From a virus (Duplodnaviria; Heunggongvirae; Uroviricota; Caudoviricetes): 64,000 nucleotides of DNA. The translations under genes were made by a program, and so were the position numbers. Below are positions 5,045 through 60,908 of the stretch, in pieces (within the stretch, counting starts at the first letter, position 1; each line of letters begins with the position of its first letter). Below the pieces are notes generated by a model. The model did no database searches and was not told the DNA's origin. It saw only the letters and a program-made list of their open reading frames with translations. Where the stretch lies: IMG/VR virus record IMGVR_UViG_3300042881_003883, positions 83,930 to 147,929 of that record; one strand, 5' to 3'.

Positions 5045-5061
5045 GAAGAAAATAAAAAGTT

Positions 5062-11333: not shown

Positions 11334-11336
11334 ATT

Positions 11337-11963: not shown

Positions 11964-12628
11964 TGAAAGTAGAAAAATTAATTAGTAAAAATCAACCATC
12001 AAATTGGTTTAATCAAATAACAAAAGAATGTAGGGATGAATATCCAATTCATTTAGTTGACATAGATGCATCGGAAAAACTCGTTGATATGGGATGTAAT
12101 GTTGGTGGTTTTAGTGAAGCATGGAATTATCGCTTTCATAATATCTTAGCAATTGATGCAGCCTCATATAATGTTGAACAATATAAAAGTAGACATTCTC
12201 ATCAAATTTTACACAAAGCAGTATCATCTAAAGATGGTGAAATTGTAAAGTTAAAAAAATATATGGGTAACAATGATGATGATACTAATTCTGGAAACTT
12301 TTCAATAACAGGTTTTGTAAATGAACATAACAAACATGGATTTAGGGGTGATGAATATGAAGAGGTTGAAACTATTAGTTTAGAAACCATTTTAGAAATG
12401 GTTGGTACTATTGGTTTGTTGAAAATTGATATAGAAGGTGCTGAAGTGGATGTATTGTACCAAAAGGATTTATCAAAAGTAAATTACATAACTGGAGAAT
12501 TCCATAATTTTATTGGTAAAGAAAATCAATCAAAATTATTTGGATGGATTGGTAATACTCATACTGAAATATATTCTGTTGGTGATGGTGTTAGTTCTCA
12601 TTTTATAAAAATGTGGAAAAGAAAATAG
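11963..12628 (+). CDS. FkbM-family SAM-dependent methyltransferase
   Basis: MGCNVGGF (SAM motif I) and LLKIDIEGAEVDVL (FkbM signature). Confidence 0.7.
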   Translation: MKVEKLISKNQPSNWFNQITKECRDEYPIHLVDIDASEKLVDMGCNVGGFSEAWNYRFHNILAIDAASYNVEQYKSRHSHQILHKAVSSKDGEIVKLKKYMGNNDDDTNSGNFSITGFVNEHNKHGFRGDEYEEVETISLETILEMVGTIGLLKIDIEGAEVDVLYQKDLSKVNYITGEFHNFIGKENQSKLFGWIGNTHTEIYSVGDGVSSHFIKMWKRK

Positions 12629-12629
12629 T

Positions 12630-13355
12630 ATGAAAATAGCACTATGTTTACATGGTTTATTTGATTCAACAACTGATGGTAGTTCCAATGGTTATGATGG
12701 ATACAACCATATTAAAAAACACATTTTAGATATTACTGATACTGATGTGTTTATCCATAGTTGGGATATTGAAAAAGAGAGTGAAATCACTAAGTTATAT
12801 AATCCAACGTCAGCCATATTTGAAGCCCCAAAAGATTTTAATGAATTGGTAAATGGTAGAGGTTTAAATAATTTGAGTGGAACACCACGTTCACCTCAAA
12901 GTGTATTATCCCATCTTTATAGTGTAACTGAATCAATGAAGTTACCATATATAACTAATTCAGAATATGATATCATTATTAAAGCTCGTTTTGATTTGGG
13001 TAGAATAAATAGAGATACATCTGGACCAGGTAGAGGTAACCCATACCCAGTTCAATGTATTAATTTTCAAACTGAAATCGAATCTGATAAAATATATATG
13101 GCAGATTGGAATCATTTCAAAATGGGACCAGCGGATATGTGGTTTTATGGTACAATGGAAACTATGAAACCATTTACATCATTATATAATTCATTAGAGG
13201 AGCAAATGGAATTTAGAAGTCCATTTCACACATTTGCAGCTCAGATAGAAGGAAACCCTGGTGACCTTTCAAATTCCATAGCATTTTATAAATGGTGGAT
13301 GATACAAAATGGACTTTGGGAAAATAGAATAAATTTACAAACAATATGGGAATAG
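12630..13355 (+). CDS. hypothetical protein; paralog of the C-terminal domain of the 31724..33217 product
   Basis: KIALCLHG...DTDVFIHSWD...DIIIKARFD parallels KIALCFSG...DIDVYGSFWD...DIVIRARTD in the 31724 product. Confidence 0.5.
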   Translation: MKIALCLHGLFDSTTDGSSNGYDGYNHIKKHILDITDTDVFIHSWDIEKESEITKLYNPTSAIFEAPKDFNELVNGRGLNNLSGTPRSPQSVLSHLYSVTESMKLPYITNSEYDIIIKARFDLGRINRDTSGPGRGNPYPVQCINFQTEIESDKIYMADWNHFKMGPADMWFYGTMETMKPFTSLYNSLEEQMEFRSPFHTFAAQIEGNPGDLSNSIAFYKWWMIQNGLWENRINLQTIWE

Positions 13356-14044
13356 AATTACCAATAGTAGTGTACACTCACACCGATATGAAGGATGTAT
13401 GGCCAATGTTTTTTGGACAATTCAAAAAATATATCAATGGTTATAAAGTGTATGTGGCTGTTAATCAAATAGATACGCAAATACCATCGGATTATATCCA
13501 ATTGGTATATGATGATTCAAAATCATATACAGAGCGCTGGAGACAAATACTTCCACAAATTGAGGAAGATGTTATTATGTTTTTGCATGAGGATATGATA
13601 TTATTCGATACACCTAATTTTGAATTATTAGAAAAGTATTATGGTTATGTTAAAAGTGGAGTAGTTGAGAGTATTAAAATGATATTAGCAGGTGATTCAT
13701 TTCTTCCATCAACCATAGATAGTACATTAGTTACCAATCAATACGCAAAGTTTTCAATCCAACCAACACTAGTTAAAAAGGAAATATTTCAAAATTTAGT
13801 TAATACTATTGGTTCGTTAAATATTTGGCAATTTGAAGAAGCTATTATTTCATATGGTCGGGATTTTATGATACGAGTTGGTAGTGAGAAAAAAAGAGGT
13901 ATGTATCACTATGATAGTATTGTTTTCCCTTATATAGCAACTGCTATTAATAAAGGAAAATGGAATATGAGTGAATACCAAAAAGAATTGGATAAAATGT
14001 TTAATGAATATGGTGTAATGCCATTTGAAAGAGGAATAGTATGA
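13346..14044 (+). CDS. hypothetical protein (glycan locus)
   Basis: Operonic ORF. Confidence 0.5.
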   Translation: MGIELPIVVYTHTDMKDVWPMFFGQFKKYINGYKVYVAVNQIDTQIPSDYIQLVYDDSKSYTERWRQILPQIEEDVIMFLHEDMILFDTPNFELLEKYYGYVKSGVVESIKMILAGDSFLPSTIDSTLVTNQYAKFSIQPTLVKKEIFQNLVNTIGSLNIWQFEEAIISYGRDFMIRVGSEKKRGMYHYDSIVFPYIATAINKGKWNMSEYQKELDKMFNEYGVMPFERGIV

Positions 14045-15408
14045 TAAAATTAATAGTATTTGATTTAGATGGAGTTTTAGTAGAAGCTAAGAATATCCAC
14101 TTTGATGCACTAAATAATGCATTAGGACCTGAATATGAAATAAGTTGGGCTGAACACCTTTCAACTTATGATGGTTTGAAAACAAACCAAAAGTTGAATA
14201 TGTTGAGTGAACAAAAGGGATTACCAACTGAATTACATAAACAAGTATGGGATAAAAAACAAAAGTACACATTACAGATGTTAAAAGAGTTGAAACCAAA
14301 TCAAACTCTACAATCGGTAATGAATGCACTTTCTGAAGATGGATACAAATTAGCAGTTTGTTCTAATTCAATCAGAAAGACAGTTTTGACTGTACTTTCA
14401 AAATTGGGAATAATGGAGTTTATGGATTTAATTATCTCAAATGAAGATGTTAAGAATTCTAAACCACACCCTGAGATGTATTGGAAAGCAATTTCAATGA
14501 TGAGTTGTTTACCAGAAGAAACTCTAATTGTAGAGGATTCACCTTATGGGTTACTTGCGGCATCTCGTTCCAAATCTCATATTTTGAGAGTTAGAAATCC
14601 ACAAGAAGTAACCTATACGAACATATTTAAAAAATTAACTGAAATACAAATGGGTAAAATAGAAACAACACCTAAATGGGTAGATAAAAAGTTGAATGTA
14701 TTAATTCCAATGGCTGGTGCTGGAAGTAGATTCCAAACTGCTGGTTATACATTCCCAAAACCACTAATTGATGTAGAGGGTAAACCAATGATTCAAGTTG
14801 TGGTAGAAAATTTGAACATAGATGCAAATTACATATATGTAGTTCAGAAAGCACATAGAGAGCAATATAACTTAGATACCTTACTAAATTTAATTACACC
14901 TGGTTGTAAAGTAGTAGAAGTAGATACATTAACCGAAGGAGCTGCTTGTACGGCATTATTGGCTAAAGAATTTATTGATTCAGAGGCACCACTTTTCTTT
15001 GCAAATTCAGACCAATTTGTAGAATGGGATTCAAACGAATTCTTTTACAAAATGAATGAGAACGATTGTGATGGTGGAATACCAACATTTAAAGCAACTC
15101 ACCCAAAATGGAGTTTTGCTAAGTTAGATGATGATGGATTTGTAACCGAAGTACAAGAGAAAAACCCAATATCTGATTTGGCAACAATTGGTTTTTATTA
15201 TTGGAAACATGGTTCGGATTTTGTGAAATACGCTGAAGAGATGATTGAGCAAGATATTAGAGTGAATGGAGAATTCTATGTTTGTCCTGTTTATAACAAC
15301 GCAATTAAAGCTGGATTAAAGGTTAGAACATTCGATGTACCTAAAATGTGGGGATTGGGAACCCCTGAGGATTTAAAATATTATTTAGAAAATTATAAAA
15401 ATGATTAA
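14041..15408 (+). CDS. bifunctional HAD-superfamily phosphatase / sugar-phosphate nucleotidyltransferase fusion
   Basis: N-terminus VFDLDGVLVEA (HAD motif I DxDG), downstream SNS and K...EDS motifs; C-terminal half LIPMAGAGSRF...KPLIDVEGKPMI (nucleotidyltransferase G-x-G-x-R motif). Confidence 0.7.
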   Translation: MIKLIVFDLDGVLVEAKNIHFDALNNALGPEYEISWAEHLSTYDGLKTNQKLNMLSEQKGLPTELHKQVWDKKQKYTLQMLKELKPNQTLQSVMNALSEDGYKLAVCSNSIRKTVLTVLSKLGIMEFMDLIISNEDVKNSKPHPEMYWKAISMMSCLPEETLIVEDSPYGLLAASRSKSHILRVRNPQEVTYTNIFKKLTEIQMGKIETTPKWVDKKLNVLIPMAGAGSRFQTAGYTFPKPLIDVEGKPMIQVVVENLNIDANYIYVVQKAHREQYNLDTLLNLITPGCKVVEVDTLTEGAACTALLAKEFIDSEAPLFFANSDQFVEWDSNEFFYKMNENDCDGGIPTFKATHPKWSFAKLDDDGFVTEVQEKNPISDLATIGFYYWKHGSDFVKYAEEMIEQDIRVNGEFYVCPVYNNAIKAGLKVRTFDVPKMWGLGTPEDLKYYLENYKND

Positions 15409-16228
15409 AACAGCTACTATAATAACAACTCATAATCCTAAATTTCATCATGCATTTAATTTATTGGAATCCTATATAAAATATGTAGAGAAACCACATG
15501 ACTTATATTTTATTTTTACAAATGAAAATGAAATGTTTGATTTTAATTGGAAATCCGAATACAAATATATGGATAATTATAAACCATTAATATTGGATGA
15601 ATCATTGAGAGATAAAAAAAGTATTGTTAATGTTAAAAAAATGTTTGCATTACAATCTATAATTAACGATTATGATTATGTTGGTGTATATGATTGTGAA
15701 TCTGAATTTGTTAAAAATTGTAACTTAGATACCATATATGAAAATATTGCATCATATGATTATGTAAAGGCTAACGAATCTGAAATTGGAGGTAATATAA
15801 TAAAGTTAGCAGCAGGATATATGGGATTGGATACTAATGAAATATTAATAAATCAAACTAAAAATTATTCTCTATATTGGTGGTTTAGTGAAATACCTGT
15901 TTATAAAAAAGAATTGTTTATAGATTTCTATGATTGGTATAAATCATCTGAAAATTTAAATACATTACAATCAGAATATTATGCATTTGATTATTTGGTT
16001 TATATAATATGGTTAGTTTGTTTTAAAAATTTTAAAATCAAACATATTGAATTACCATTTAAATCCGAAATTTCAGCAGTTGAGGATTTTAGATTAACAC
16101 AAGAACAAAAGGATATTGTTAGTAATGAATTTCAATCGTATTGGTCTGTAAATGGTGTAAACCATAAAAAGTATGATAATATAAAATTAATAGTACATTC
16201 GGATAATGCTGGATATATAGATAAATAA
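15401..16228 (+). CDS. hypothetical protein (glycan locus)
   Basis: Operonic ORF, AT-rich. Confidence 0.5.
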   Translation: MIKTATIITTHNPKFHHAFNLLESYIKYVEKPHDLYFIFTNENEMFDFNWKSEYKYMDNYKPLILDESLRDKKSIVNVKKMFALQSIINDYDYVGVYDCESEFVKNCNLDTIYENIASYDYVKANESEIGGNIIKLAAGYMGLDTNEILINQTKNYSLYWWFSEIPVYKKELFIDFYDWYKSSENLNTLQSEYYAFDYLVYIIWLVCFKNFKIKHIELPFKSEISAVEDFRLTQEQKDIVSNEFQSYWSVNGVNHKKYDNIKLIVHSDNAGYIDK

Positions 16229-16238
16229 AAAAATAATA

Positions 16239-17477
16239 ATGACAAATTATCAAAGAGTTACCTTTATTATACCTTGTAGGAATAATTTAAGATTTTTACA
16301 ACAAGCCGTTTCATCAATTGAAGAACATTATGGTGATGGGCATGATATTGTGATAATGGATGATGCATCAACTGATGATAGTTGGGAATGGATTGAAAAA
16401 TATGGTTCGGATAAGAATCATATTTTAACTTATAGAAATGGTGGAAAAGATAGAGTTGGGCATACTGTTTTATACGATATAGGTATTCAATTAGCTAGAA
16501 CACCAATCGTAACAATATTACATTCAGATATGATTGTAACACCAAACTATGTTGGGAATATGTTGAAACACCTTAAACCAATGAGTGTAGTTTCAGCCAC
16601 TAGAATCGAACCACCATTGCATCCACCTGGTCCTGAAAAATATGTTAAGAATTTTGGAATGGATGTGGATGAGTTTACTGATGCCAAATCCAATTTCTTA
16701 AAATTTGTATATGAAGCTGAGTATCTAAATGAGGGTAAAGTTACTAATGGTATCTTTGCACCTTGGATGTTATATAAAGAAGATTTTGTATCTATTGGTG
16801 GGCATGATAAATTATTTGCACCTATGGAGTTGGAAGATTCTGATATATTTAATAGGTTCCATTTGAATGGGTACCAATTAATTCAGAGTAGAGATGCATT
16901 TGTATATCATATGACTTGTAGAGGTAGTAGATTTAAAGATGGTATCGAAATAGAAAAAGAGATACCACTACCAGATGGTACAATATGGTTCAAACCAAAA
17001 GACTCTGAAGAATATTTACAACTAAGAGCAACCAAATTTAGAGAGTGGTGGAGAAAGTGGCATACTGATGTTTTACATGATGATAATATGATGCCAATAG
17101 TTCCTAAAAGATATTCAACATCATTTATAATTGAAAATTGTAGACCACAACTACTTTCAATATTAGAACCCTGGTGTGATGATATCTATGTAGATTGTGA
17201 ATTTAACTCATATATTATGAATGAAGATTCTAAATCGGAATATATAATATCCGATAAAGTTCATTCAATTGGTAATGATGTTAAAAATAATGTACACATT
17301 AAATTTGATGCTAGTAAATTAACTAATCAACATTTTACTGAATTTATTAAAAAATTACCATTTATTATTGAACAAACTGGGCAATTGGGTACATTCAATT
17401 GGGATATATTTGAAATAAGTATTTTATCTTTAAATACAATTGACATGATTAAACCTCACTTTAAAAACGTATTTTAA
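16239..17477 (+). CDS. glycosyltransferase family 2 with extended C-terminal domain
   Basis: RVTFIIPCRNNLRFLQQAVSSI...IVIMDDASTDDS (classic GT2 N-terminus and DXD). Confidence 0.7.
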   Translation: MTNYQRVTFIIPCRNNLRFLQQAVSSIEEHYGDGHDIVIMDDASTDDSWEWIEKYGSDKNHILTYRNGGKDRVGHTVLYDIGIQLARTPIVTILHSDMIVTPNYVGNMLKHLKPMSVVSATRIEPPLHPPGPEKYVKNFGMDVDEFTDAKSNFLKFVYEAEYLNEGKVTNGIFAPWMLYKEDFVSIGGHDKLFAPMELEDSDIFNRFHLNGYQLIQSRDAFVYHMTCRGSRFKDGIEIEKEIPLPDGTIWFKPKDSEEYLQLRATKFREWWRKWHTDVLHDDNMMPIVPKRYSTSFIIENCRPQLLSILEPWCDDIYVDCEFNSYIMNEDSKSEYIISDKVHSIGNDVKNNVHIKFDASKLTNQHFTEFIKKLPFIIEQTGQLGTFNWDIFEISILSLNTIDMIKPHFKNVF

Positions 17478-18361
17478 TGAAAAAAAAGACATTAGTATGT
17501 ATCCATATAATGCCATCTGAAATAGAAATGTTTCAAAGGTTTATGGAACAATATAGAAAAGCATTATCGTATTGTAGAGAATATGATGTTACTATAAAAG
17601 CAACTTTGAATTTAAACCCAAAACTTACGGATTGGGAAAATAGTGAGTTAAAGCAAGATTACTTTATGAATATCTTCAATGCTCAGTTTCAATATAAAGA
17701 ATTGAAAAATATAAATCAAATTATATTAGATGAATCTATGTGGGGTACAACTCAACAAAAGAGAGAATCTATTAAAATTGATTACTTTGACCAATTTATA
17801 TTTTGTGATACGGATATTGTGATGCATGAACATCAGTTAATATACCAATTACAAGCAGCAGAAAGATTGGAGGGTATGTATATACTTTCACCATCAATTC
17901 CAAAGTGGTGGGATATGAGTTGGGATGGTTTAGTAAGTGATTCAATGAAAAATGCCGAAGCATTTAGTGAAGAAACTATGTTAGGTGCATTTACACAAAC
18001 TCCAACTAATATGCAACTTAAGAAGTTACCATATATTAAATTTGGATGTGGTATGCATACTCTATATTCTAAATCATTTTGGCAGTTTGTTGGAATACCT
18101 GAATCATTTGGTGGTTATGGACCCGAAGATACTTATGGTATGACAGCTGGTAGAATAGCATTAGAAGCTGGTTATGTAGTGAATCAATACGTTTTAGATG
18201 GATTATACATTACAGAAGATTATATAAATAGAGTTCCATCATTTGATGGTAAAATTAAAACTATTGACAAAAAATCTGAATTTTACAAAAACGCAGAAGC
18301 AATTGGTAGAGATGAATTGGTGGCATTTGTAGAAAGATTAAAACAAAAAAGTATCACTTAA
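17477..18361 (+). CDS. hypothetical protein, last gene of glycan operon
   Basis: ATG overlaps the upstream stop; CDTDIVMHE could be a DXD-like motif. Confidence 0.5.
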   Translation: MKKKTLVCIHIMPSEIEMFQRFMEQYRKALSYCREYDVTIKATLNLNPKLTDWENSELKQDYFMNIFNAQFQYKELKNINQIILDESMWGTTQQKRESIKIDYFDQFIFCDTDIVMHEHQLIYQLQAAERLEGMYILSPSIPKWWDMSWDGLVSDSMKNAEAFSEETMLGAFTQTPTNMQLKKLPYIKFGCGMHTLYSKSFWQFVGIPESFGGYGPEDTYGMTAGRIALEAGYVVNQYVLDGLYITEDYINRVPSFDGKIKTIDKKSEFYKNAEAIGRDELVAFVERLKQKSIT

Positions 18362-18754: not shown

Positions 18755-19315
18755 ATGAAATCAGTTGAAAAATACATTGTAGAGAATTATGGGAAAAGAA
18801 CCGCATCAAAATTAATGAGTGAGGGTATTCCTAAATTATTTCTAAAAATTGAAGCAGTTAAGAAACAAATAGAAAAATTAACTGCAGAAAGAAAACAAAA
18901 ATTTGGTGGAGCATATGCTGCTAAAGTTAATAGTGAAACGGATGTAAATAAAAGAAATACATTGGTTAAACCAATTTTAGACATCACCAAAAAAATAAAT
19001 GCACTACACAAAAATCTTATCGATTTGTATGATATGGAGGAAAGATACATAAAGGATTTAGGTAAAGATGATGAATTGGTAGTTTCCGAAGATACGGATT
19101 TAGGTCATCAGGATGATGAACCGGGTATGTTAAGAGCTGATTTAAGTATTATCGAAAGATATGCTGAAGAATTAGGTGAGATGTTGGCTCAGTTTGATAG
19201 TACTGGTGAAGAAGTTGATTTTCCACATTGGTGGCAAGCTAAGATAGTTAATGCTAAAGAAGATATGATTGCGGCTAAACACTACTTAAGGTCAGAATTA
19301 GAAAAAAATAATTAA
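18755..19315 (+). CDS. hypothetical protein
   Basis: ORF, acidic C-terminus. Confidence 0.5.
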   Translation: MKSVEKYIVENYGKRTASKLMSEGIPKLFLKIEAVKKQIEKLTAERKQKFGGAYAAKVNSETDVNKRNTLVKPILDITKKINALHKNLIDLYDMEERYIKDLGKDDELVVSEDTDLGHQDDEPGMLRADLSIIERYAEELGEMLAQFDSTGEEVDFPHWWQAKIVNAKEDMIAAKHYLRSELEKNN

Positions 19316-19645: not shown

Positions 19646-19706
19646 TTTATTAGGATATATCAGAAAAAAATTGTATATTTGTATGTTAACAATCAAACAA
19701 GAAAAT

Positions 19707-20237
19707 ATGATAGCAAGGAGTTTATTAGTGGAATCTAAGAAGTTAAGAATATTTGATTTTGATGATACATTAGTAAAAACAACATCATTTATATACATAA
19801 CGCATTCTAATGGAAAAAAATCAAAATTAACTCCAGGTCAATACGCTGTTTATAATGAAAAACCTGGTGATGAATTTGATTTTTCTGATTTTCAAAAAGT
19901 TCAGAATCCTCAAGAAATAAAAAAGATTACGAATGTACTTCGTAGAGTAATGGGTAGTAGTGGTGGAGATGGTGTTTACATCCTAACTGCAAGAGCAGCA
20001 TATCAACCTATTAAACAATATCTAAAGGATATTGGTATTAATTCTAATAAAATATTTGTAGTTGCATTAGCATCTAACAACCCGAAAGATAAAGCAGATT
20101 GGATAGAAGATAAAATCGATAACGAAGGTTATGATGATGTTTACTTTGCGGATGATTCTGAAAAGAATGTAGAGGCAACCAAAGCAATGTTAAGAGGTAA
20201 GGATGTTAGATGGAGAGTACAACATATAAAACATTAA
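19707..20237 (+). CDS. HAD-superfamily phosphatase (5'-nucleotidase-like)
   Basis: RIFDFDDTLVKT (DxDxT motif I). Track ORF begins with TTG at 19671 inside the TATATTTG box (19674-19681), so the ATG at 19707 is the more plausible start. Confidence 0.6.
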   Translation: MIARSLLVESKKLRIFDFDDTLVKTTSFIYITHSNGKKSKLTPGQYAVYNEKPGDEFDFSDFQKVQNPQEIKKITNVLRRVMGSSGGDGVYILTARAAYQPIKQYLKDIGINSNKIFVVALASNNPKDKADWIEDKIDNEGYDDVYFADDSEKNVEATKAMLRGKDVRWRVQHIKH

Positions 20238-20271
20238 AAAGATATATTTATAAGAATAACAAAGTACAACT

Positions 20272-20553
20272 ATGAAATTAAACTTTAAACTAAAAGGTAA
20301 TACATATTCAGCTGAATTTGGTGTACATCCCAACATTAAAGATGGTGGGATTGCTTGTATTGCAAAAACTTCAAAAGATTTGGATGTTTTACAAAATATA
20401 ATATCTGATTCAAATGAAGCATTAGTTATTCCAAAGGCATTACAAAGTTATTTGGAATCAAAATTAAAATTACCAATTGATATTGATTTTGATTATAAAG
20501 GTGCTGGATATGGGTTTAAAATAGATATGTACAGCTTATTAAAGAAATTATAG
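20272..20553 (+). CDS. hypothetical protein
   Basis: ORF. Confidence 0.45.
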   Translation: MKLNFKLKGNTYSAEFGVHPNIKDGGIACIAKTSKDLDVLQNIISDSNEALVIPKALQSYLESKLKLPIDIDFDYKGAGYGFKIDMYSLLKKL

Positions 20554-20559
20554 AAGATT

Positions 20560-21747
20560 ATGAAAAAATCAATAAAAGAGGGTTCGATGAGTGATGTAGA
20601 TTTGATGGCTAAAGAGGCATCATCATTTAAAGAATTCGTTAAGGAATTTTACAAAGAATTCAAAGACTTCCCTAAAAATAGAGATGCGATGAAATGGTTG
20701 GAAGATACCTATAAATCAGTTAGTGAAGGTACTGAATCTGATGAATTGGAAAGAGTGGCAGATGCACTTCCTCAAACTGTTGAAGAAATGATTAATGAAA
20801 TTTCTTTATCATCAGCTGGTGTTAGAGATTTTTTAAGAGCGTTGTATCGTAATAACAAAATACTAAAGAAATTAGGATTTTCTAATTTTAAAGGTGCAGT
20901 TGATTATATTAGAAGTAATGGTGGTCGTGATTGGGATGAGTTAAGAGATGAGGCTACTGGATTTGGATTGAAATTTGAATCAATAAACGAAGAAAAACCT
21001 GGTCTTTGGGCAAACATCCGAGCTAAAAGAGCGAGAGGTGAGAAACCTGCACATGGTAATTCTGATGCACATAAAGATGCAGTTAAAGCTGGTAAGAAAA
21101 TAAATAACGAAGACCATAGCGGAGACCCATCCGATAAATACGTTGTAAAACCTTGTAAAGACCCAATTGAAAAATGGGCTGTATGGGAAGGTGATATTAG
21201 AGTAAAGGGATTTGAAACACAACCTGAAGCTCAAGCATTCGCTGATATGAAAAACAAAGAGCAAGGGTTAACTGAAGTAGGTGATGTAATTGATACAATC
21301 ACTATGGATATACCATTGTTTATTAGAACATTGGAATTTGCAAGAGAAGATGCTAAAACTGATATGGATTTGCATGATTTTGCTGAAAGAGCTATTAAGC
21401 TTACAAAGGAAAAGGGTACAATCGATATGAGTTCATATAATGAATTGATTGGTGGTAGTTCTGTAAATGAAGGAGCCGGATGTGGTTGTGGTTGTGGGTG
21501 TGGTGGTTCTAAGTTAACAGAAAACACCGAACCAACTATTATAACCCAATTAAAGGATATAGTTAAGACTAGTTCAAATAAAGTTTTAGTAGACCCAAAG
21601 AGTGGTAAAAAAGTAAGAGTTGATTTGTACTCAGCATCAGCAATAACTAAAGTATATGATGCACTTAAGCAACAATCAAACAAAGATAAATTCGTAAGTA
21701 CTGGATTAATGGGTATGCAATCAATGGCATTTAAATTATTAAAGTAA
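20560..21747 (+). CDS. hypothetical protein with (Gly-Cys)n repeat
   Basis: GAGCGCGCGCGGS encoded by (GGTTGT)n-like microsatellite at 21478-21507. Confidence 0.55.
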   Translation: MKKSIKEGSMSDVDLMAKEASSFKEFVKEFYKEFKDFPKNRDAMKWLEDTYKSVSEGTESDELERVADALPQTVEEMINEISLSSAGVRDFLRALYRNNKILKKLGFSNFKGAVDYIRSNGGRDWDELRDEATGFGLKFESINEEKPGLWANIRAKRARGEKPAHGNSDAHKDAVKAGKKINNEDHSGDPSDKYVVKPCKDPIEKWAVWEGDIRVKGFETQPEAQAFADMKNKEQGLTEVGDVIDTITMDIPLFIRTLEFAREDAKTDMDLHDFAERAIKLTKEKGTIDMSSYNELIGGSSVNEGAGCGCGCGCGGSKLTENTEPTIITQLKDIVKTSSNKVLVDPKSGKKVRVDLYSASAITKVYDALKQQSNKDKFVSTGLMGMQSMAFKLLK

Positions 21748-22271
21748 TGAGCTCATCTAAATTAAAAACCATATTATCGGAAATAGAATGGAAGGGTATG
21801 AAAGTTGAGCTTGGAAAAGTTTATACATTTAAAGATATTCCACCATTCAAAACTCCACAACAAATCAGAGAAGAGGAAGAAGTAGTAACTCAACCTGATA
21901 ATGATAGAGAAATGGTAGTTGGTGTAGCTGAAATTGTTTCTATGGTAAGTGATACCGAAAATAGAAAAGAGATAGCTGCTAAAATGATGAAAAAGTTTGA
22001 TTATGAAAATGTAAAATATAATCCAACTGAATTTTTAAAACTAAGTGGAGTTACTGAAAGTATAGATGAGTTAGTTCAAATGTCAATACAAAATGTGGCA
22101 ACTGATTTAATTCCAAGAGATATAGTTAATGTAGTAACACCAGAATCTAAAGAAAGATATACATCATTTGTAAGAGATTTGGTGAGTACATTAAATATGT
22201 TTTATAAGAAACATGGGGTGGATAGAAGATTTACCGATAGTAATTTCAAATATACAAAATTTTCAAAATAA
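21747..22271 (+). CDS. hypothetical protein
   Basis: ORF; N-terminus MSSSKLKTILSE carries a weaker (I/L)xE motif. Confidence 0.5.
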   Translation: MSSSKLKTILSEIEWKGMKVELGKVYTFKDIPPFKTPQQIREEEEVVTQPDNDREMVVGVAEIVSMVSDTENRKEIAAKMMKKFDYENVKYNPTEFLKLSGVTESIDELVQMSIQNVATDLIPRDIVNVVTPESKERYTSFVRDLVSTLNMFYKKHGVDRRFTDSNFKYTKFSK

Positions 22272-22272
22272 T

Positions 22273-22548
22273 ATGATACGATTAAGTAAATTAATAAACG
22301 AAGCATCTGTTGTTGAATTAAGTGAATTAACTCCAATTCAACAAAAGCAAATTAAAGCATTCGAATCAATAATCGGTGGAAAGGCCGAAATGATTTGGGA
22401 TGGTATACATGGTTTTGTAGTTGCTATAAAATTACAAAATTATCATGGTGCATATCGATTTGATGTAGATACTATGAAAAAATTAATAGCAGCAAAAGTT
22501 CGTTGGGTTGAAGAAGATTTGGGTAAACGAGTTAGTATAGGATTTTAA
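22273..22548 (+). CDS. small protein with N-terminal MIRLSKLINE motif (CTS-like family)
   Basis: Track ORF 22213..22548 overlaps the upstream gene; ATG at 22273 sits 1 nt after the upstream stop and begins MIRLSKLINEAS, the family motif. Confidence 0.5.
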   Translation: MIRLSKLINEASVVELSELTPIQQKQIKAFESIIGGKAEMIWDGIHGFVVAIKLQNYHGAYRFDVDTMKKLIAAKVRWVEEDLGKRVSIGF

Positions 22549-22563
22549 TAACAAAATATAATT

Positions 22564-23544
22564 ATGATACAATTAAAACAATTGATAAATGAGGCTAGTG
22601 ATTTCACTGCTAAGAGTAAGGAAAGTGGAAAGTTAGTACACTTCAAATCAAAAGATTCTTATGATAAAGCTATTAAGGCTGGTTCACATGAGGACCCAAC
22701 TGCAAAAACATCAAAGGGTGGTGATGCTAAGTCTGGTGTGAATATCTTTAATACACCATCTAAAGATGAACCAAAATCGGATACACCCAAAGCAACTCCT
22801 GCTAGTTTAGCTGTTGATAAAGTTGTTTATAATACGAGAACTAAATCAGTTGGTATTGTAAGAATGGCAGATGAAAGAGGTGAAACAAAAACCGATGCAG
22901 ATGGTAATGTAAATACATCTGAATTAGAACCATACAACCCAACAAAGTATCCACATCAAAAAGATGCTAAAGTTGCACCATCTACTCAAAAAGAGGTAGA
23001 TAGTAGAGGTTTATGGAATCCATTTGCACCTGATAGTGATGAACCAAAAGCAGCTGAACCAAAAGCACCAAGAAAAGGTGACCCAACGGTAAATAAAGAA
23101 GTTAGAAAGATAGCTCAAAAGATGGGAATTTCATCTGATAAGATGGATAAAACTGAGTATCAAAAGAAAATGGCTCAAGCAGCAGTTGCGGCACTTACTG
23201 ATTCAAACTTCCATAGTGAAGCAAGAGAGTTAGTAGCAGCATTAGAAGGGAAACCTGAATTAGCAGAGAAGCCAGATTACCCCAACCCATCAGACCCTAA
23301 GTTCAGAGAAAAGATGGATGTAATCAGAGCTAAATATGATTCAGTATATAGTTCACCTGATGATGATGCACAAGATTTGGGGGTAGCCGCATCACAAGCA
23401 GCCGGATGGAGTGGAGATACCGCAATTGATGGAATTGCATTTGAATTAAGAATGAACGGATTTCATAAATTAGCAGATAAGATACAATCAGTAATTAAAG
23501 AAGGTAAAGTTAATAGAACTTCACTTAAGAACTTAATGAAATGA
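22564..23544 (+). CDS. Lys/Pro-rich protein with N-terminal MIQLKQLINE motif; paralog of the 44029..44886 product
   Basis: MIQLKQLINEASDFTAKSKESGKLVHFKSKDSYDKAIKAGSHEDP aligns with MIKLMDLLNEESFVAKSTKTGKVVNFGSRETRDAAIKSGDYEEP. Confidence 0.6.
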   Translation: MIQLKQLINEASDFTAKSKESGKLVHFKSKDSYDKAIKAGSHEDPTAKTSKGGDAKSGVNIFNTPSKDEPKSDTPKATPASLAVDKVVYNTRTKSVGIVRMADERGETKTDADGNVNTSELEPYNPTKYPHQKDAKVAPSTQKEVDSRGLWNPFAPDSDEPKAAEPKAPRKGDPTVNKEVRKIAQKMGISSDKMDKTEYQKKMAQAAVAALTDSNFHSEARELVAALEGKPELAEKPDYPNPSDPKFREKMDVIRAKYDSVYSSPDDDAQDLGVAASQAAGWSGDTAIDGIAFELRMNGFHKLADKIQSVIKEGKVNRTSLKNLMK

Positions 23545-24395
23545 TAAAATTAAATCAGTTAACTGAAAATAAAAACACCCAACCCAACTTAAATGAGGGG
23601 TTGGGTGATGCTATTTCTAAGATTAGGAATTTAGCAATAAGGATAGCTGATAAGAAAGCTGGAAATGCGGTAAAGCATCTTAACTTAGATAAAATTAGTA
23701 AAGATAAACCGGATACAAAGGCAGCAATGAATAAAGCTCAATCGGTTTTTTCAAAGCAAACTGGAATGAATGAGGATTTACGAAGTACAATTAATAAATT
23801 TTCAGTTAATGTAGGAAGTAAATCAGCATTGGGAGCAATTATATCAGCTGTATTAACTGCTGGTAGTTGGACTCAATACGCAACAGCATCATTTTCACAA
23901 TGGTATTATTCTGAAATCCAAAGATTAGCAGAACCTGAGGTAATGAAAATAATGGAAGATGTATATGGTGCACAAGCAGCTGAAGGTTCTTTATGGGCTA
24001 AGTTGGGAATGTACGCATTTTTTATATTTTTTATAATTGCAGTTGTAATGTTTGTATCTGCTAAAATAACACAAAATAGAAAAACCGAAAATACGATGAT
24101 AAAATTAACTGATTTGATGTCAGAATCAAACGAAACTTATTTCAAATCATTTACCGATGCGGCATCAGCTGCTAAAGCATACGCTATGAAAAAAGGGTAT
24201 GAAATTGATGAGAATGATTGGCAAACACAAATAGCAATGGGAGGTAAGTATTCTCGTTCAAGACCATCTATTGGTAAGACTAATTCATTTACTGTTGGAT
24301 TATTGAGAAATGGTAAACCCCAAAGAAAGGCACTACATATTTCAGTATATGGTATGGCTAGTGGAAACTTTGAATTAACTAATTATATTAATTGA
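23541..24395 (+). CDS. protein with N-terminal MIKLNQLTE motif, central TM segment and a second internal MIKLTDLMSE motif
   Basis: AFFIFFIIAVVMFVSA hydrophobic helix; internal ...ENTMIKLTDLMSESNE at about residue 178 (ATG at 24096). Confidence 0.6.
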   Translation: MIKLNQLTENKNTQPNLNEGLGDAISKIRNLAIRIADKKAGNAVKHLNLDKISKDKPDTKAAMNKAQSVFSKQTGMNEDLRSTINKFSVNVGSKSALGAIISAVLTAGSWTQYATASFSQWYYSEIQRLAEPEVMKIMEDVYGAQAAEGSLWAKLGMYAFFIFFIIAVVMFVSAKITQNRKTENTMIKLTDLMSESNETYFKSFTDAASAAKAYAMKKGYEIDENDWQTQIAMGGKYSRSRPSIGKTNSFTVGLLRNGKPQRKALHISVYGMASGNFELTNYIN

Positions 24396-24399
24396 TATA

Positions 24400-24666
24400 A
24401 TGAGTAAAGAAAAATCTTTGGTTACAGTTTATGTTAAAAATGGTGATATAAATAAAGCTCTTAAGATATTCAAAAACAAAACATTTGAATCAGGTCATCT
24501 TTTGGAGTTGAGAGATAGGAAGGAATTTACTAAACCAACTACTAAAAGGAGAAAGCAAATGAAAGATGCTATTCGTAGGCAAGAATTATTAACTATATTG
24601 GATAAAATATCCAATGGAGATACAACAATAAAGGTTCCGGAAAAGAAAGTTAAAAATAAAAAGTAA
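24400..24666 (+). CDS. rpsU: 30S ribosomal protein bS21 homolog (phage-encoded)
   Basis: 88 aa basic protein; RDRKEFTKPTTKRRKQMKDAIRRQ corresponds to the S21 R..E.YEKPSE.RKR...A signature. Confidence 0.75.
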   Translation: MSKEKSLVTVYVKNGDINKALKIFKNKTFESGHLLELRDRKEFTKPTTKRRKQMKDAIRRQELLTILDKISNGDTTIKVPEKKVKNKK

Positions 24667-24693: not shown

Positions 24694-27204
24694 ATGGCAG
24701 CAAGTATAAAAATATCAGATTTAAGTCAGTTAGTATCAGGTTCCATAGTTGGTACAACTAAGATACCAGTTGTGGATGGTGGGACAACGTTATATGCACA
24801 GGCATCATCTATAAAAGCATACGTTAGTTCGGATTTAGCAACGGATGCTGAATTAGCATCGCAAATATCAGCGGTTAACTCCACCATTAGTGGATTAACA
24901 ACTGCTAATATCTCTGAGAACGCATCTTATAAATATTATACCGATGCTAGGGTAACTGATAGATTAAACGTACTTAATGTATTATCTGGTTCATCTACTT
25001 CATTGATTGTTTCTGATGGAAGTACAAACGTAACTGCTGTTGATAAAATTACATTTAATAATGCAACTGTTTTCAATGCTGGTAGTGGTGATGTGACTGT
25101 AACTGTACCATCTTCATTAACTGTTGGTAATGGTTCAGGAATACCTATTAGTAGTGTTGATACTATTACATTTCCAGGCGCAACAATTGCTGATAACACT
25201 AATGGTGATATAACTGTTACTATATCAGGTACAGCTACGAATATATCTGCATTAAATTCATTCACATCATCAGCAAATTCATCTATTAATTCAATTAATT
25301 CAACTACTGGTTCTATTAATTTAACTACTGGTTCTATTAATTCATTTACTGGTTCTATTAGAGGTGAGGTTAATAGTATTGAAGCATATACTTCATCATT
25401 AAAAGCAGCATCTATTGTATCATCATCACAACAAATAACTAATTTAGGTTTTTTAAGTAGTTCATTTGGTCTAATATCATCATCACAACAAATAAGTGAT
25501 TTTGGGTTTATAAGCGCATCTGGTGGTACAACAATTCCTCAGGGGACTGTTTCTGGTTCTCAACAAATAGTTGGTTTAGGATTTGTAACTACAAGTTCAT
25601 TAGCAACTGGGCCAAATTTCCATATAATATCACAATCTATAATAGCTACTGACCCTATTGATTCTAATTTATTATTATCATCGGTATATGTAGATAAAAC
25701 CAGAACAATAACATTTTCACAATTTTCAGCATCGTTAGATTCTAGGTTTGGAGCTGGTGGTGGTTCTGATTATATTTCAAATGTTACATTTGGTAATAAT
25801 AGATTAACATTTACTGGGGTTGGTTCAGCATTTAATGATTTTGTTCAATTTCCAAATGGATTGGTATCATCATCCGCACAATTAAATGGATTTGGATTCC
25901 TTACATCAACAGATGTTAATTCAACATACATAGTTAATAGATTACCAAGCGGAGTTATTAGTGGTTCAACTCAAATAACTAATTTAGGATTTGCAACAAC
26001 ATCATCTTTGATTGGTAATGGGTTTATATCATCATCCGCACAAATTACATTAACAAATTCTAACACTGGTGGATTTGATACATCCTATGTTGCTGAAAAT
26101 GTAAATTATAAATATTATACTGATGCTAGAGTTCAAAATGTACTAAATGGATTAACATTAGTATCTGGTTCATTCGGATTACCATCTGGTTCGGTTAGTT
26201 CATCATCTCAAATAGATTACCAACTAATATATAACAAACCAGTATTCTATACTGGTTCTAATAATGTTTTTATTACATCTGGCTCCTCTGGATATAGTAG
26301 TCCTTGGGTTATTATTGAGGTACTATCACCTACATTAACTCAATTTTCATCATTAGTATCATCGATTAGTAGTTCATTATTAACTAATGGTATAGTATCA
26401 TCATCAACACAAATATCCAATTTAGGATTTGTGAGTAACGGAAGTTTAGCAGGATTAAATAATTGGACGGGTTCAAGTGGTGGATTTGGGTTAACATCAT
26501 CATCATTAGCAAGTAGAATTGTTAATTTATCAAATGTAGTATTAACCGCATCTGCACAAATTGATTATGATTTTATTCAAAATACACCAACATTCGCACC
26601 TGGAGATGGTATTTTAATATCTCAAAGTTTAGAGAACGCAATTACTATAACAAATAACGCATCGGCACCTACGTGGAATAGTATAACATCAAAACCAAAT
26701 AATTTGGTATCATCATCATTACAAGTAGATGGATATAATTTATTTGCTAAGACTGGTTCTACAAATACATTCTATGGTAATCAAACTGTAAATGGTGAAG
26801 TTCAAACTACCGATTTAACTGTAACTGGTATTAGTGACTTTCAAGGAGCAGCTACCTTTGCTGGTACATCTACATTTAATAACCCTGTTATTAATGAAAT
26901 AACAGCCATATCAGTAAATGGATTTACGGCATCTTTAGATTTTAGTATAGGTAATTTATTTGAAATAAATTTAGACGGAAATGCTATAACACACATATCA
27001 GCTAGTAATATATCATTCGGTCAAACTGCAACGGTATTAATTACAACTGCTAATCAATCTACTGCATCATTTAGTTCAAACGTAAGACAACCATTTGGTT
27101 CATTCTACACCGCATCTTTGGTTGGTAGTATTGATATTATAACACTTACAAAATTCAATTCTACTGATGTTTATGTAACTTCGGTAAAAAATAATTTTGT
27201 ATAA
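24694..27204 (+). CDS. tail fiber / receptor-binding protein, Ser/Thr-rich with internal repeats
   Basis: 836 aa, ~30% Ser/Thr; repeated (S/G)S(S/T)QQI(T/S)xLGF peptide at least 7 times; duplicated ENxxYKYYTDARV module; 21-bp DNA tandem repeat around 25300-25365. Confidence 0.7.
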   Translation: MAASIKISDLSQLVSGSIVGTTKIPVVDGGTTLYAQASSIKAYVSSDLATDAELASQISAVNSTISGLTTANISENASYKYYTDARVTDRLNVLNVLSGSSTSLIVSDGSTNVTAVDKITFNNATVFNAGSGDVTVTVPSSLTVGNGSGIPISSVDTITFPGATIADNTNGDITVTISGTATNISALNSFTSSANSSINSINSTTGSINLTTGSINSFTGSIRGEVNSIEAYTSSLKAASIVSSSQQITNLGFLSSSFGLISSSQQISDFGFISASGGTTIPQGTVSGSQQIVGLGFVTTSSLATGPNFHIISQSIIATDPIDSNLLLSSVYVDKTRTITFSQFSASLDSRFGAGGGSDYISNVTFGNNRLTFTGVGSAFNDFVQFPNGLVSSSAQLNGFGFLTSTDVNSTYIVNRLPSGVISGSTQITNLGFATTSSLIGNGFISSSAQITLTNSNTGGFDTSYVAENVNYKYYTDARVQNVLNGLTLVSGSFGLPSGSVSSSSQIDYQLIYNKPVFYTGSNNVFITSGSSGYSSPWVIIEVLSPTLTQFSSLVSSISSSLLTNGIVSSSTQISNLGFVSNGSLAGLNNWTGSSGGFGLTSSSLASRIVNLSNVVLTASAQIDYDFIQNTPTFAPGDGILISQSLENAITITNNASAPTWNSITSKPNNLVSSSLQVDGYNLFAKTGSTNTFYGNQTVNGEVQTTDLTVTGISDFQGAATFAGTSTFNNPVINEITAISVNGFTASLDFSIGNLFEINLDGNAITHISASNISFGQTATVLITTANQSTASFSSNVRQPFGSFYTASLVGSIDIITLTKFNSTDVYVTSVKNNFV

Positions 27205-31727: not shown

Positions 31728-33217
31728 TAAATTACGTTTACATAAAAATACCAGCATCCGATTTTGGGTTATTTGAAAATTTATTTCATGGCAAAAGAGC
31801 CAATGAATACAAAATACATTCAGCAGGACATAGTTGGAACTATCCTACTAAAATAAAAGGTTGGCAAGATTGGGATTACCCACAACAAACACCTAATATA
31901 TTTAGAGATGTAGCTACATTTAAGTTAAGTCCAAATGATGTATTTATTACAACTATTAGAAATCCATTTAATATTTTGGTAGATTATTATAAAGAAAACT
32001 GGGCTAATCTAAAGACTCATTATAATCTAGCTGATATAAATTCAGTTGATGATTTCCAAAAATTTGTGGATATCTATCTAAATAAATCTATTGTATTTCA
32101 TGCACCCGCATTTCGTAACTCAATGTTTTCACAATTAAAGGATATCAATGGTAATTGGTTATTTGATGATAATAGTATTATAATAAGGAGTGAATATATT
32201 AATGAGGATTTAGCTAAATTCTCAGAAACAATAAATTTACCAATATCGCTTGAATTCACACAACCAAAGGTTGATAACGTTATAACATATAGAGATGACC
32301 AAATTGAGAGATTAACAAAATTATGGAAATCTGACTTGGATTATTTCGGATATTCATTTAATAAATCAGAAATGAACACAAAAAAACAAACTAACAGTTT
32401 ACATAAGCCAAAGATAGCATTGTGTTTCTCTGGTGAAATAAGAGATTTAGATAGAACTAAGGAGTATTGGGGTGAATTGATTAAGAAGTATGACATTGAT
32501 GTATATGGTTCATTCTGGGACACTTATAATACTGAATGTGGTGATACTATTGAAAACTTTCATAGGATATACAATGTTAAGAAGGTGGAGGTTGAAAATT
32601 ATAATTCATTTAATGAATCTACCTTATCTATTCTAAGAATTGGTATTGAACCACCAACTTCATTATTGTATTTTTTAAGAGATTCCTGTGTGAACTTTGG
32701 TACAATGAGTATGTGGTACAAAATTTGGAGAGCAAATTTATTAACAAAGGATTTGGGTATTGATTATGATATTGTAATAAGAGCTAGAACTGATACTTAT
32801 TTTGATGATAATTTAGATATATCCATTAATGATATGTTAAATTTACCACATGGTAGGGTTAGGTTAAATAATCACGATAAATCGGAGGGTATATCGGACC
32901 TATTTGCATATGGTTCACCAAAGATGATGGATTATTATTCAACGTGCTATTTTTTCATAATGAATTATTTAACTGAAGGGTATTATTTGGTTCCACATGA
33001 GCATATGTTGCATATTCATATGAACAAAATAAACGTTCCAATTAGATTTATGGTTAATAACATAACAATCACAAGAACATCCAGAGGAACTGAGGATGAA
33101 GTATATTGTAATGGTGTTGATATAAATGAAGAGATTTTACAATCGGATTTTATGGAACTGGAACCACAAAAAGATTTATTCTACAAAGCAAATATTAAAG
33201 AAAAATTCAAAATATGA
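31724..33217 (+). CDS. two-domain protein: sulfotransferase-like N-terminal region plus C-terminal domain paralogous to the 12630..13355 product
   Basis: ITTIRNPFNILVDYY resembles the sulfotransferase 3'-PB motif RNPxD..Y; C-terminal KIALCFSG...DIDVYGSFWD...DIVIRARTD paralogy. Confidence 0.5.
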   Translation: MINYVYIKIPASDFGLFENLFHGKRANEYKIHSAGHSWNYPTKIKGWQDWDYPQQTPNIFRDVATFKLSPNDVFITTIRNPFNILVDYYKENWANLKTHYNLADINSVDDFQKFVDIYLNKSIVFHAPAFRNSMFSQLKDINGNWLFDDNSIIIRSEYINEDLAKFSETINLPISLEFTQPKVDNVITYRDDQIERLTKLWKSDLDYFGYSFNKSEMNTKKQTNSLHKPKIALCFSGEIRDLDRTKEYWGELIKKYDIDVYGSFWDTYNTECGDTIENFHRIYNVKKVEVENYNSFNESTLSILRIGIEPPTSLLYFLRDSCVNFGTMSMWYKIWRANLLTKDLGIDYDIVIRARTDTYFDDNLDISINDMLNLPHGRVRLNNHDKSEGISDLFAYGSPKMMDYYSTCYFFIMNYLTEGYYLVPHEHMLHIHMNKINVPIRFMVNNITITRTSRGTEDEVYCNGVDINEEILQSDFMELEPQKDLFYKANIKEKFKI

Positions 33218-33900
33218 AAAAGTTTATTTTTATAACCATTTCCGTAGTATTACTACCAATATTTGGATATTCTCAAACCAAATTGGACTCACTTGATTTT
33301 GATAAGTACATACATTCAATTACAGGTAGGTTTTCAACTAAATACCATTCAACCATTGATACCACCAGAGGTGATGTATTAGTAAGGACTGTAGAGTATG
33401 ATACACATGATGAAGCGACTCTAATCTATACTCAGCAAGGTGAACTAATTGAGGGTAAGTACTATCCATATAGACAACGTATATACGCAATATACCAAAT
33501 TGATGATTATTACATTGGTTTAAACATATTCTCAATACCAAATGAAGTTGATTTTTGGAATGTACTAACTGATACCAAAGTTGCGTCTGGTAAGTTTAAT
33601 TTAGATGATATAACATTTAAAGTTGATACCAACAAACTAAAGGCACTTGCCATCTATGACCTACCATATAAAGTGGGGTGTGATATAAAGATATACAAAG
33701 ATAACTTAGGGGCATTTAGAGGTAGTACCAATGAATCGGATTGTAAAGGCTCATTTAAGGGAGCAACCTACACTACAACTGAGTTTGTAATATACCAACA
33801 CGAAGTTATTAGTTGGGAGAGGGGTTGGGATGATTCTGGAACTCAAATATGGGGGCCAAAAACAGGTCCATATATCTACTCAAAAGTTGCAAATCACTAA
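33214..33900 (+). CDS. secreted protein (signal peptide)
   Basis: N-terminus MKKFIFITISVVLLPIFGYSQ, a typical Bacteroidetes signal peptide. Confidence 0.55.
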   Translation: MKKFIFITISVVLLPIFGYSQTKLDSLDFDKYIHSITGRFSTKYHSTIDTTRGDVLVRTVEYDTHDEATLIYTQQGELIEGKYYPYRQRIYAIYQIDDYYIGLNIFSIPNEVDFWNVLTDTKVASGKFNLDDITFKVDTNKLKALAIYDLPYKVGCDIKIYKDNLGAFRGSTNESDCKGSFKGATYTTTEFVIYQHEVISWERGWDDSGTQIWGPKTGPYIYSKVANH

Positions 33901-42865: not shown

Positions 42866-42866
42866 T

Positions 42867-44886: not shown

Positions 44887-44889
44887 GAA

Positions 44890-60907: not shown

Positions 60908-60908
60908 T

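Follow-up and report, generated by a model that had tools for sequence, protein, structure and literature searches.

A Recurrent N-Terminal Decapeptide Resembling T4-Type Capsid-Targeting Propeptides on Variable Genes of an Uncultured Cyanophage

Leader-Bearing Genes of the Window

The window analysed here, a 64-kb stretch of viral DNA with a G+C content of 32%, corresponds approximately to positions 47,839–111,838 of a 270,754-bp metagenome contig of the Joint Genome Institute (JGI; 3300042460 Ga0453165_0000015), and its genome is that of a distant, uncultured T4-like cyanophage. A short peptide of the type M-I-x-L-x-x-(L/I), hereafter called the leader, is encoded seven times in the window, always on the + strand; six of the copies are gene starts and one is internal. 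All seven copies listed in an earlier sequence-only reading of this DNA, including those of three consecutive genes and the internal one at 24096, were found at the positions given there (Table 1). The same reading had every copy closed by (L/I)-x-E, which is correct for six of the seven, with the Glu at residue 9, 10 or 14 (residues 8–10 are INE in 22273 and 22564, IYE in 42867 and LNE in 44029), and incorrect for the copy at 24096, which ends in M-S-E. Two variant leaders beyond that list were recognized at gene 21747 and, tentatively, at gene 18755. The HAD hydrolase encoded at 14041 (MIKLIVFDLDG) was considered as a further member and rejected, as this segment is the first beta-strand of the protein and contains no Phi-x-E (Phi, hydrophobic residue).

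Given the amino acid frequencies of the 107 genes on the + strand, between 0.11 and 0.22 gene starts of the form MI.L..[LIM] are expected, and 6 were observed; for such starts with Glu at position 10 (E10), the corresponding figures are 0.008–0.017 and 4. Shuffling of residues 2–15 inside each protein produced 0.27 motif starts on average and never more than 4. A chance origin of the motif is thus excluded. A loose T4 template was enriched only about threefold, and a peptide of ten residues is too short for homology to be assessed statistically. At the DNA level, all of the seven copies read ATGATA...TTA, with ATA accounting for only 35% of the Ile codons (P ~ 6 × 10−4 for ATA alone), and this uniformity points to exchange among 5′ ends inside one genome.

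For comparison, contigs were retrieved by homology (best 80 or best 120 matches for protein and locus retrievals); they are referred to by L numbers, and the protease-containing contigs with the 22273 homologues described below come from JGI metagenomes. Gene 22273 starts at the second ATG of its open reading frame (ORF), in agreement with the JGI gene call (91 aa), and in its homologues, which are 146 aa long, the corresponding alignment position holds an internal L-x-E↓AS (here and below, the arrow marks the junction following the Glu). The leader of protein 22564 is followed by a conserved module of about 50 aa that is common to the paralogous gene 44029. The C-terminal domain of protein 44029 contains a Gly/Ala-rich hydrophobic stretch, and its residues 103–285 share about 60% identity with an internal region of proteins of 1,400–1,800 aa. 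These giant proteins (L014–L038, e.g., L019 3188–8602) have leader-like beginnings of their own (MTITELIEEILNE, MNMNLSELINE). Protein 23541 has a transmembrane segment at residues 155–177 and a 99-aa module after its internal leader. Protein 42867 gave a weak, sub-threshold Pfam match to Phage_YunG-like, and no homologue of its gene was found among the retrieved loci. Searches of PHROGs and Pfam with the leader proteins assigned a confident family to the kinase 43280 only.

Table 1. Positions of the leader copies, leader-bearing genes, flanking genes and promoter-like sites in the window (arrow, predicted cleavage site).
Feature	Position	Strand	Remarks
186-aa protein gene, tentative member	18755–19315	+	MKSVEKYIVE; hydrophobic residues 4, 7, 8 and Glu10
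HAD-like 184-aa gene, conserved upstream flank	19683–20237	+	82% identical in L234, 67% in L232
Promoter-like site	20245–20252	+	TATTTATA (consensus ATATTTATA); 19 nt upstream of gene 20272
174-aa protein gene, variant N-terminally extended leader	21747–22271	+	MSSSKLKTILSE at 21747–21782
91-aa protein gene	22273–22548	+	leader MIRLSKLINE, 22273–22302; INE↓AS
326-aa Lys-rich protein gene	22564–23544	+	leader MIQLKQLINE, 22564–22593; INE↓AS
284-aa fusion-like ORF	23541–24395	+	leader MIKLNQLTE (then N), 23541–23567; LTE at residues 7–9
Internal leader copy	24096–24125	+	MIKLTDLMSE; at residue 186 of ORF 23541–24395
Ribosomal protein S21 gene, conserved downstream flank	24400–24666	+	Pfam PF01165
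Promoter-like site	42055–42062	+	TATTTATA; 32 nt upstream of gene 42095
137-aa protein gene	42867–43280	+	leader MISLKEIIYE, 42867–42896; IYE↓V; second LNE at residues 12–14
250-aa P-loop kinase gene	43280–44032	+	14-residue leader MISLKEIIKGILSE, 43280–43321; LSE (residues 12–14)↓GVDD
285-aa protein gene	44029–44886	+	leader MIKLMDLLNE, 44029–44058; LNE↓E

Conservation of the Leader as a Peptide

In total, 60 distinct ORFs starting with MI.L..[LIMV] were found in all of the retrieved loci. Glu10, which is not part of this search pattern, is present in 43 of them, and a Phi-x-E ends at residues 9–14 in 49 of the 60, in 42 of these exactly at residue 10. The consensus leader is a decapeptide, M-I-(K/S/R/Q)-L-x-x-(L/I)-(L/I)-x-E, which contains no hydrophobic stretch of the signal-peptide type. 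Among relatives, Ile2 is encoded by ATA (27 cases) or ATT (22 cases), Leu4 by TTA, CTA, TTG, CTT or CTC, and Glu10 by GAA or GAG; owing to this synonymous variation, the constraint must act on the leader peptide and not on the DNA. Residues M1, I2, L4, L7 and E10 are invariant in homologues of gene 22564 down to 28% identity. When residues 1–14 are removed, the leader proteins fall into at least 19 unrelated similarity groups.

The P-Loop Kinase and Its Leader Junction

Protein 43280 contains the Walker A motif GGPGSGKS and matched the Pfam families AAA_33 (40.6 bits; cut-off, 27) and Zeta_toxin (30.4 bits; cut-off, 22.3); a kinase family was also assigned by PHROGs, and the best Foldseek matches were polynucleotide kinase 4gp7 (E-value, 1 × 10−6) and the zeta toxin structures 3q8x/1gvn. 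Judging from these matches, it is a P-loop kinase of the AAA_33/zeta-toxin/polynucleotide-kinase group. In the AlphaFold2 model (mean predicted local distance difference test score, pLDDT, 78.5), residues 1–19 have a pLDDT below 50, with a short helix at residues 4–12, and the first strand of the fold begins at residue 23. Thus, the leader is placed outside the kinase domain, and in the model it is detached from the kinase fold.

Among the leader proteins, 43280 is the only one with homologues in cultured phages. In the 120 close homologues listed (72–99% identical), the N-terminal extensions range from 8 to 108 residues and differ considerably in sequence, and in spite of this variation the junction Phi-x-E↓GV(D/Y)DPGILK is kept by almost all of them. 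The exceptions in the pattern scan were one N-terminally truncated homologue and three in which I is conservatively replaced by V; in two of the latter, the junction is still visible. The same junction is also present in Ralstonia phage RsoM2USA (MTTFKEYLLE↓GIED), where the kinase has two leader-like neighbours, and as Phi-x-E↓G in Melnitz (MKTFAELQE↓G) and HTVC008M. It is internal to a 779-aa protein of Atu_ph07, the N-terminal part of which appears ADP-ribosyltransferase-like by eye only.

Association with the Prohead Protease and Head Genes

The closest relatives of 22564 (about 62% identical) are found in L003, L005, L007 and L034, where the gene order is Peptidase_S77 prohead protease, 22273-like gene, 22564-like gene, further leader genes, ribosomal protein S21, an acidic putative scaffold and Gp23 capsid protein. 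In L003, which lies on a 288,673-bp contig, the protease is encoded at 8938–9531 (E-value, 1 × 10−26; hhalign probability, 100%), and the capsid protein at 13296–14924. All of the seven 22273 homologues in protease-containing contigs start 10–17 nt after the S77 stop codon, and many 22564 homologues in the contigs retrieved with the protease start 100–500 nt past it. A kinase 71% identical to 43280 is encoded 1.6 kb downstream of the S77 protease gene in L193, and the C-terminal domain of the tentative member 18755 is 48–51% identical to a protein whose gene lies directly upstream of that of the S77 protease in both L125 and L129. Across 82 loci, the leader is present on 50 out of 201 distinct genes (25%) starting within 4 kb downstream of the protease, compared with 15 out of 398 (4%) elsewhere in these loci. 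The slot between protease and scaffold is variable and holds up to seven genes, typically one to three of them with the leader.

The cleavage contexts in these relatives are T4-like: the protease starts MKSLLIE↓T (MNEPQLLIE↓T in T4), the putative scaffold starts MANSKLLKE↓A, and QLLDE↓A occurs in the capsid protein close to residue 60. The alignment of the capsid N-terminus with that of T4 was too loose to place the cleavage site, and the (L/I)-x-E↓A near residue 60 was read from the sequence. In this lineage, the protease shows no variation at its catalytic His and Ser.

The nearest isolate is Microcystis phage Mel-JY01 (190 kb), the syntenic genes of which are 40–56% identical to those of the window. 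It encodes a T4-type portal, a Peptidase_S77 protease and a Gp23 capsid protein, and three genes adjacent to one another (60276–62718) begin MIKLKSLLQE, MIKLKSLLKE and MIKLMSLVTE. In contigs of the Mel-JY01 type, the protease is adjoined by the gene for a 330–410-aa protein (MIKLK.IL.E), an ADP-ribosyltransferase homologous to T4 Alt. Its representative in L068 (11009–12151; MIKLKTILLE) matches ADPrib_exo_Tox/PF03496 (E-value, 7 × 10−11) and aligns with the catalytic region of T4 Alt over 61 columns (hhalign E-value, 9 × 10−6; probability, 83%), including a common FVSTSL; the Mel-JY01 copy (WWT39312) starts MYEYVEYILE. Pfam gave no match to an ADP-ribosyltransferase domain (R-S-ExE) among the window proteins and, since the match is confined to relatives, the window set is not filed as a T4 Alt-like family. 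The leader is absent from the head module of the marine cyanophage S-PM2 and is thus not general to Kyanoviridae head genes.

Two other genes of the window have relatives in this region. The S21 gene lies inside the head module in Mel-JY01 and in L003-type relatives, in the latter between the prohead protease and the scaffold/capsid genes. The DNA methyltransferase encoded at 46082–47407 has 69% identical homologues (MIKTFSILDTR), without a Phi-x-E leader, that occupy this head-module slot in relatives, 1.2–3 kb downstream of the protease.

Variable Loci and Fusions

L234 and L232, contigs of 265 and 267 kb, respectively, are syntenic with the window and share the flanks of leader cluster 1, i.e., the HAD-like gene, the S21 gene, located at the same position in both (66% and 61% identity across the two contigs), and the N-terminal part of a fibre-like gene. 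The leader genes enclosed by these flanks differ (for example, MIKLTDILNE, MKLKKLLSE, MIKLKNILNE, MIRLNKILNE and MIKLKDILSE), and their C-terminal domains are shuffled: the C-terminal 71 aa of protein 21747 correspond to the C-terminal domain of L234 2415–4115 (MIKLKNILNE) and of L232 2520–3458 (MIKLTDILNE). The kinase cassette is located at a different place in each of the three syntenic genomes. The leader genes form highly variable loci that preserve the leader and exchange the cargo.

The 99-aa module of protein 23541 is found in the syntenic genomes as the C-terminal domain of separate leader proteins (74% identity with L234 4118–5173 and 46% with L232 4267–4716), and ORF 23541–24395 is thus a fusion. 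A comparable tandem fusion with an internal leader is present in L046.

Several further genes of these loci are worth recording. The fibre-like protein encoded at 24694–27204 (836 aa; Ser/Gly/Thr-rich and repetitive) has no family match; its N-terminus is conserved in L232 and L234, and the remainder is strongly diverged. The variable slot also encodes a 395-aa protein (20560–21747) with a Cys-Gly repeat, GAGCGCGCGCGG, at residues ~299–336 and a weak metallothionein-like match. On the 267-kb contig, a subtilisin-type Peptidase_S8 gene (L232 8355–9968) lies directly upstream of the kinase cassette, where the window has no counterpart.

Promoter-Like Motif Upstream of the Leader Clusters

Both leader clusters belong to gene runs headed by the motif TATTTATA: the site at 20245 heads the run 20272–24666, which includes cluster 1, and that at 42055 heads the run 42095–45489, which includes cluster 2 and a secreted-looking endonuclease. 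All 11 of the + strand copies of TATTTATA in the window are located at most 70 nt upstream of a gene start. These 11 sites, of the consensus ATATTTATA, are found only directly upstream of gene starts on the coding strand and include those at 18374, 20245, 24683, 27732, 29041, 41503, 42055, 45517 and 63084. In Mel-JY01, ATATTTATA is found ahead of the genes for the portal and the tail tube, a small gene immediately upstream of that for the sheath, a neighbour of the tail lysozyme gene and the leader gene 60276, and ahead of none of the replication genes. This distribution is consistent with ATATTTATA being a putative late promoter.

In reverse complement, the consensus reads as TATAAATA, the late promoter of T4. 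The endonuclease that ends the cluster 2 run (44890–45489) is of the DNA/RNA non-specific type (Endonuclease_NS) and has a signal-peptide-like N-terminus.

Comparison with Known Packaging Signals

The classic example of a T4 enzyme that bears a propeptide and is packaged in the head is Alt. In the T4 record, Alt starts MELITELFDE, gp24 MAKINELLRE and gp22 MLKEQLIAE. Hydrophobic residues at positions 4, 7 and 8 together with Glu10 are common to gp24, Alt and the new leader, and the propeptides of gp24 and Alt, summarized as M-x-K/L-I-x-E-L-L/F-x-E, are its closest pattern match. The same arrangement is seen in MKTYQEFIAE, which we take to be the capsid targeting sequence (CTS) found on T4's internal proteins; the string itself occurs in a T4 engineering paper. 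According to the literature, an N-terminal CTS of about 10 aa loads proteins into the scaffolding core of T4, gp24 loses a 10-residue peptide, and the internal proteins and Alt lose small N-terminal peptides (PMC9958956), with gp21 cleaving after the Glu of I/LxE (PMC12991175).

Like the CTS of T4 IPII and IPIII (Mullaney & Black 1996), the new leader is an N-terminal peptide of about 10 residues with hydrophobic positions 4, 7 and 8 and an (I/L)-x-E end; as in T4, it is carried by proteins that are not otherwise related, it accompanies a Peptidase_S77 protease in relatives of the window phage, and the cargo varies among related phages. The consensus MIKLxxLLxE differs from the T4 sequence, with only M1 and E10 in common. 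The family is also larger than that of the T4 internal proteins, comprising enzymes, a membrane-segment protein and proteins of 1,800 aa. As regards Alt, its counterpart in relatives bears the new leader beside the protease gene, and the homology covers the catalytic core only.

Repoila and co-workers reportedly described in 1994 that CTS-coding 5′ ends recombine with one another at the internal-protein loci of T-even phages. The leader loci resemble these in that flanks and leader are conserved while cargo genes are swapped between close relatives. They differ in location, as the slot lies between genes 21 and 22 in the relatives and at a separate HAD-to-S21 locus in genomes of the window type, and in the presence of tandem fusions. 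Encapsulin cargo-loading peptides are also short and terminal, and they suffice to load diverse cargo into an HK97-fold shell; these peptides are C-terminal, uncleaved and non-viral, with a different sequence logic.

In the giant phages phiKZ and SPN3US, propeptides are cut at (A/S/G)-x-E. Those of the ejection proteins are mostly about 80–130 residues long, and only that of gp45 is about 20 (PMC5694885). The leader described here is distinguished by its length of 9–14 residues and its (L/I)-x-E end; a gp21-related protease, diverged paralogues with conserved N-termini and a membrane-segment protein are common to both systems. SPN3US contains many head-internal proteins, and its membrane-segment ejection protein gp47 is a precedent for the transmembrane carrier (PMC5694885).

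Proposed Function and Alternative Explanations

The decapeptide is probably an N-terminal targeting and cleavage propeptide of the T4 type, which would mark a variable set of head-packaged proteins. The CTS-like interpretation put forward in the sequence-only reading is supported by the 10-residue, Glu-ended unit, the unrelated cargo, the selection at the peptide level, the agreement with T4 propeptides, the concentration of leaders next to the protease gene in relatives, the presence of orthologues of window leader genes in that head-module slot and the Alt-like carrier. The leader proteins would be made late in infection, alongside the head proteins, and be carried by the short leader into the scaffolding core of the prohead, where the gp21-family serine protease (Peptidase_S77) would cut after the Glu of (L/I)-x-E and remove the leader. 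The mature proteins would then remain with the DNA inside the head and pass into the host upon infection. In the window, the packaged set would comprise the P-loop kinase together with Lys-rich proteins and a protein with a membrane segment, and in relatives the Alt-like ADP-ribosyltransferase and giant proteins of 1,800 aa; internal leaders in fused ORFs may be cleavage sites that free separate modules. Targeting, cleavage, virion retention, ejection and an effector role are all points that we infer from sequence, and the P-loop kinase of the window and the Alt-like enzyme of relatives suggest that this role may be in anti-defence or host takeover.

Several observations weigh against this interpretation. 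No prohead protease gene was found in the 64-kb window or in the next 10 kb downstream, and searches with the proteases of Mel-JY01 and L003 returned, among the matches listed, only other lineages and not the window contig. The leader slot of the window and of its closest syntenic relatives does not adjoin head core genes, and some genes in the head-module slot of other relatives have no leader. Three of the seven window copies deviate from E10 (E9 in one, M-S-E in another, and G10 with E14 in the third), the hydrophobic moment of the leader 10-mers, used as a test of amphipathicity, was indistinguishable from that of their own shuffles, and protein 23541 has a strong transmembrane segment, an unusual feature in a protein of the capsid core. 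The window shows no enrichment of the canonical T4 late promoter TATAAATA (21 matches versus 18.3 expected). In T4 itself, conservation of the CTS is limited to IPII and IPIII, and localization to the core 'remains mysterious' (PMC9958956); for this reason, the equivalence with T4 rests on analogy.

The main rival explanation is that the leader does load proteins into the prohead and that these are assembly or scaffold parts, degraded and expelled at maturation like T4 gp22, gp67 and gp68. It would account for the position of leader genes in the protease–scaffold slot and for leader proteins (MISLVKLITE) in the position of T4 gp68, just upstream of the protease; several leader proteins are Lys/Glu-rich and of low complexity, and the putative scaffold of L003, with 12 (L/I)-x-E sites, has a similar start (MANSKLLKE). 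Nevertheless, this explanation is unlikely, given that the P-loop kinase and the Alt-like ADP-ribosyltransferase are enzymes with intact catalytic motifs and that cargo sets differ widely between near-identical backbones, which fits accessory proteins better than essential scaffolds. It is also rather improbable that the leader has a function unrelated to the capsid, for instance as a site recognized by a chaperone or protease, as a short helix for membrane association or in oligomerization. In the model the short peptide forms a helix, a transmembrane segment is present in one carrier, the phage encodes GroES and GroEL, and the window clusters are not beside head genes; a function of this kind leaves unexplained Glu10, the match to T4 propeptides, the concentration of leaders past the protease and the Alt homologue as carrier, and the leader is devoid of a signal-peptide-type hydrophobic stretch.

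Much less probable is an element acting at the level of nucleic acid, either a translation-initiation region or a recombination boundary of cassettes, with the peptide as a by-product. The ATGATA...TTA uniformity of the seven window copies (P ~ 6 × 10−4), the visible shuffling of domains and the lack of an evident Shine-Dalgarno sequence upstream of the leader genes would agree with such an element. However, the same residues are encoded by different codons across relatives, conservation reaches as far as Glu10 and the internal copies of fused ORFs, and recombination between CTS-coding 5′ ends would be just as likely to make the codons uniform within a genome. As for a functionless by-product of AT-rich codon usage or of simple paralogy, Lys, Ile, Leu and Asn are indeed common near N-termini at 32% G+C, and a stretch of about 50 residues is truly paralogous in 22564 and 44029. 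Still, the probability of this explanation is next to nil in view of the 6 observed starts versus at most 0.22 expected (4 with E10 versus at most 0.017), the 19 unrelated cargo groups and the retention of the leader down to 28% identity. Chance, base composition and simple paralogy are effectively refuted by the motif statistics, the diversity of cargo and the leader's retention in distant homologues.

What is new in the propeptide interpretation favoured here, compared with T4, is the consensus, the far larger and more varied cargo set, and the polyprotein-like fusions. Such a leader was not described, in the literature searched, outside T4 and the giant phiKZ/SPN3US phages, nor was Mel-JY01 mentioned there; within these sources, the statement of the sequence-only reading that a set of this kind is uncharacterised in the lineage stands. 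Proteins carried in the head act before any phage gene is expressed, as exemplified in T4 by the restriction-enzyme inhibitor IPI and the RNA-polymerase modifier Alt. To our knowledge, there are almost no means of telling which proteins are packaged outside the T-even phages and the phiKZ group. A leader linked to the protease would allow packaged proteins to be predicted from sequence alone across widespread uncultured cyanophages, and dozens of uncharacterised cargo families would become candidate host-takeover or counter-defence factors. More tentatively, the leader might be a 'packaging code' of abundant uncultured freshwater and marine T4-like (jumbo) cyanophages, marking a rapidly exchanging injected arsenal of kinases, ADP-ribosyltransferases, membrane-inserting proteins and giants of 1,800 aa, with the fused ORFs as polyproteins cut by the protease. 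If so, injected effectors, counter-defence proteins included, could be listed directly from metagenomes.

Other Features of the Genome

Genes of the T4-type clamp loader, a DNA ligase and a thymidylate synthase are encoded in the window, and the tRNA and Rfam scans of the window gave no matches. Among cultured phages, no near-identical match to the region was found, nor any protein-level match to gene 22564 or to the protein in the gp68 position. A cyanobacterial host is indicated by auxiliary genes of the cyanophage type, namely those for CpeT (33214–33900), heme oxygenase (53790–54302) and a ferredoxin-dependent bilin reductase (54290–54931). The phage has its own GroES (55559–55855) and GroEL (55862–57463; PHROG chaperonin, E-value, 5 × 10−168). 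A large glycan-synthesis cluster at 3653–18361, partly syntenic with Mel-JY01 83–90 kb, encodes glycosyltransferases, an FkbM-type methyltransferase and a fusion of HAD and nucleotidyltransferase domains.

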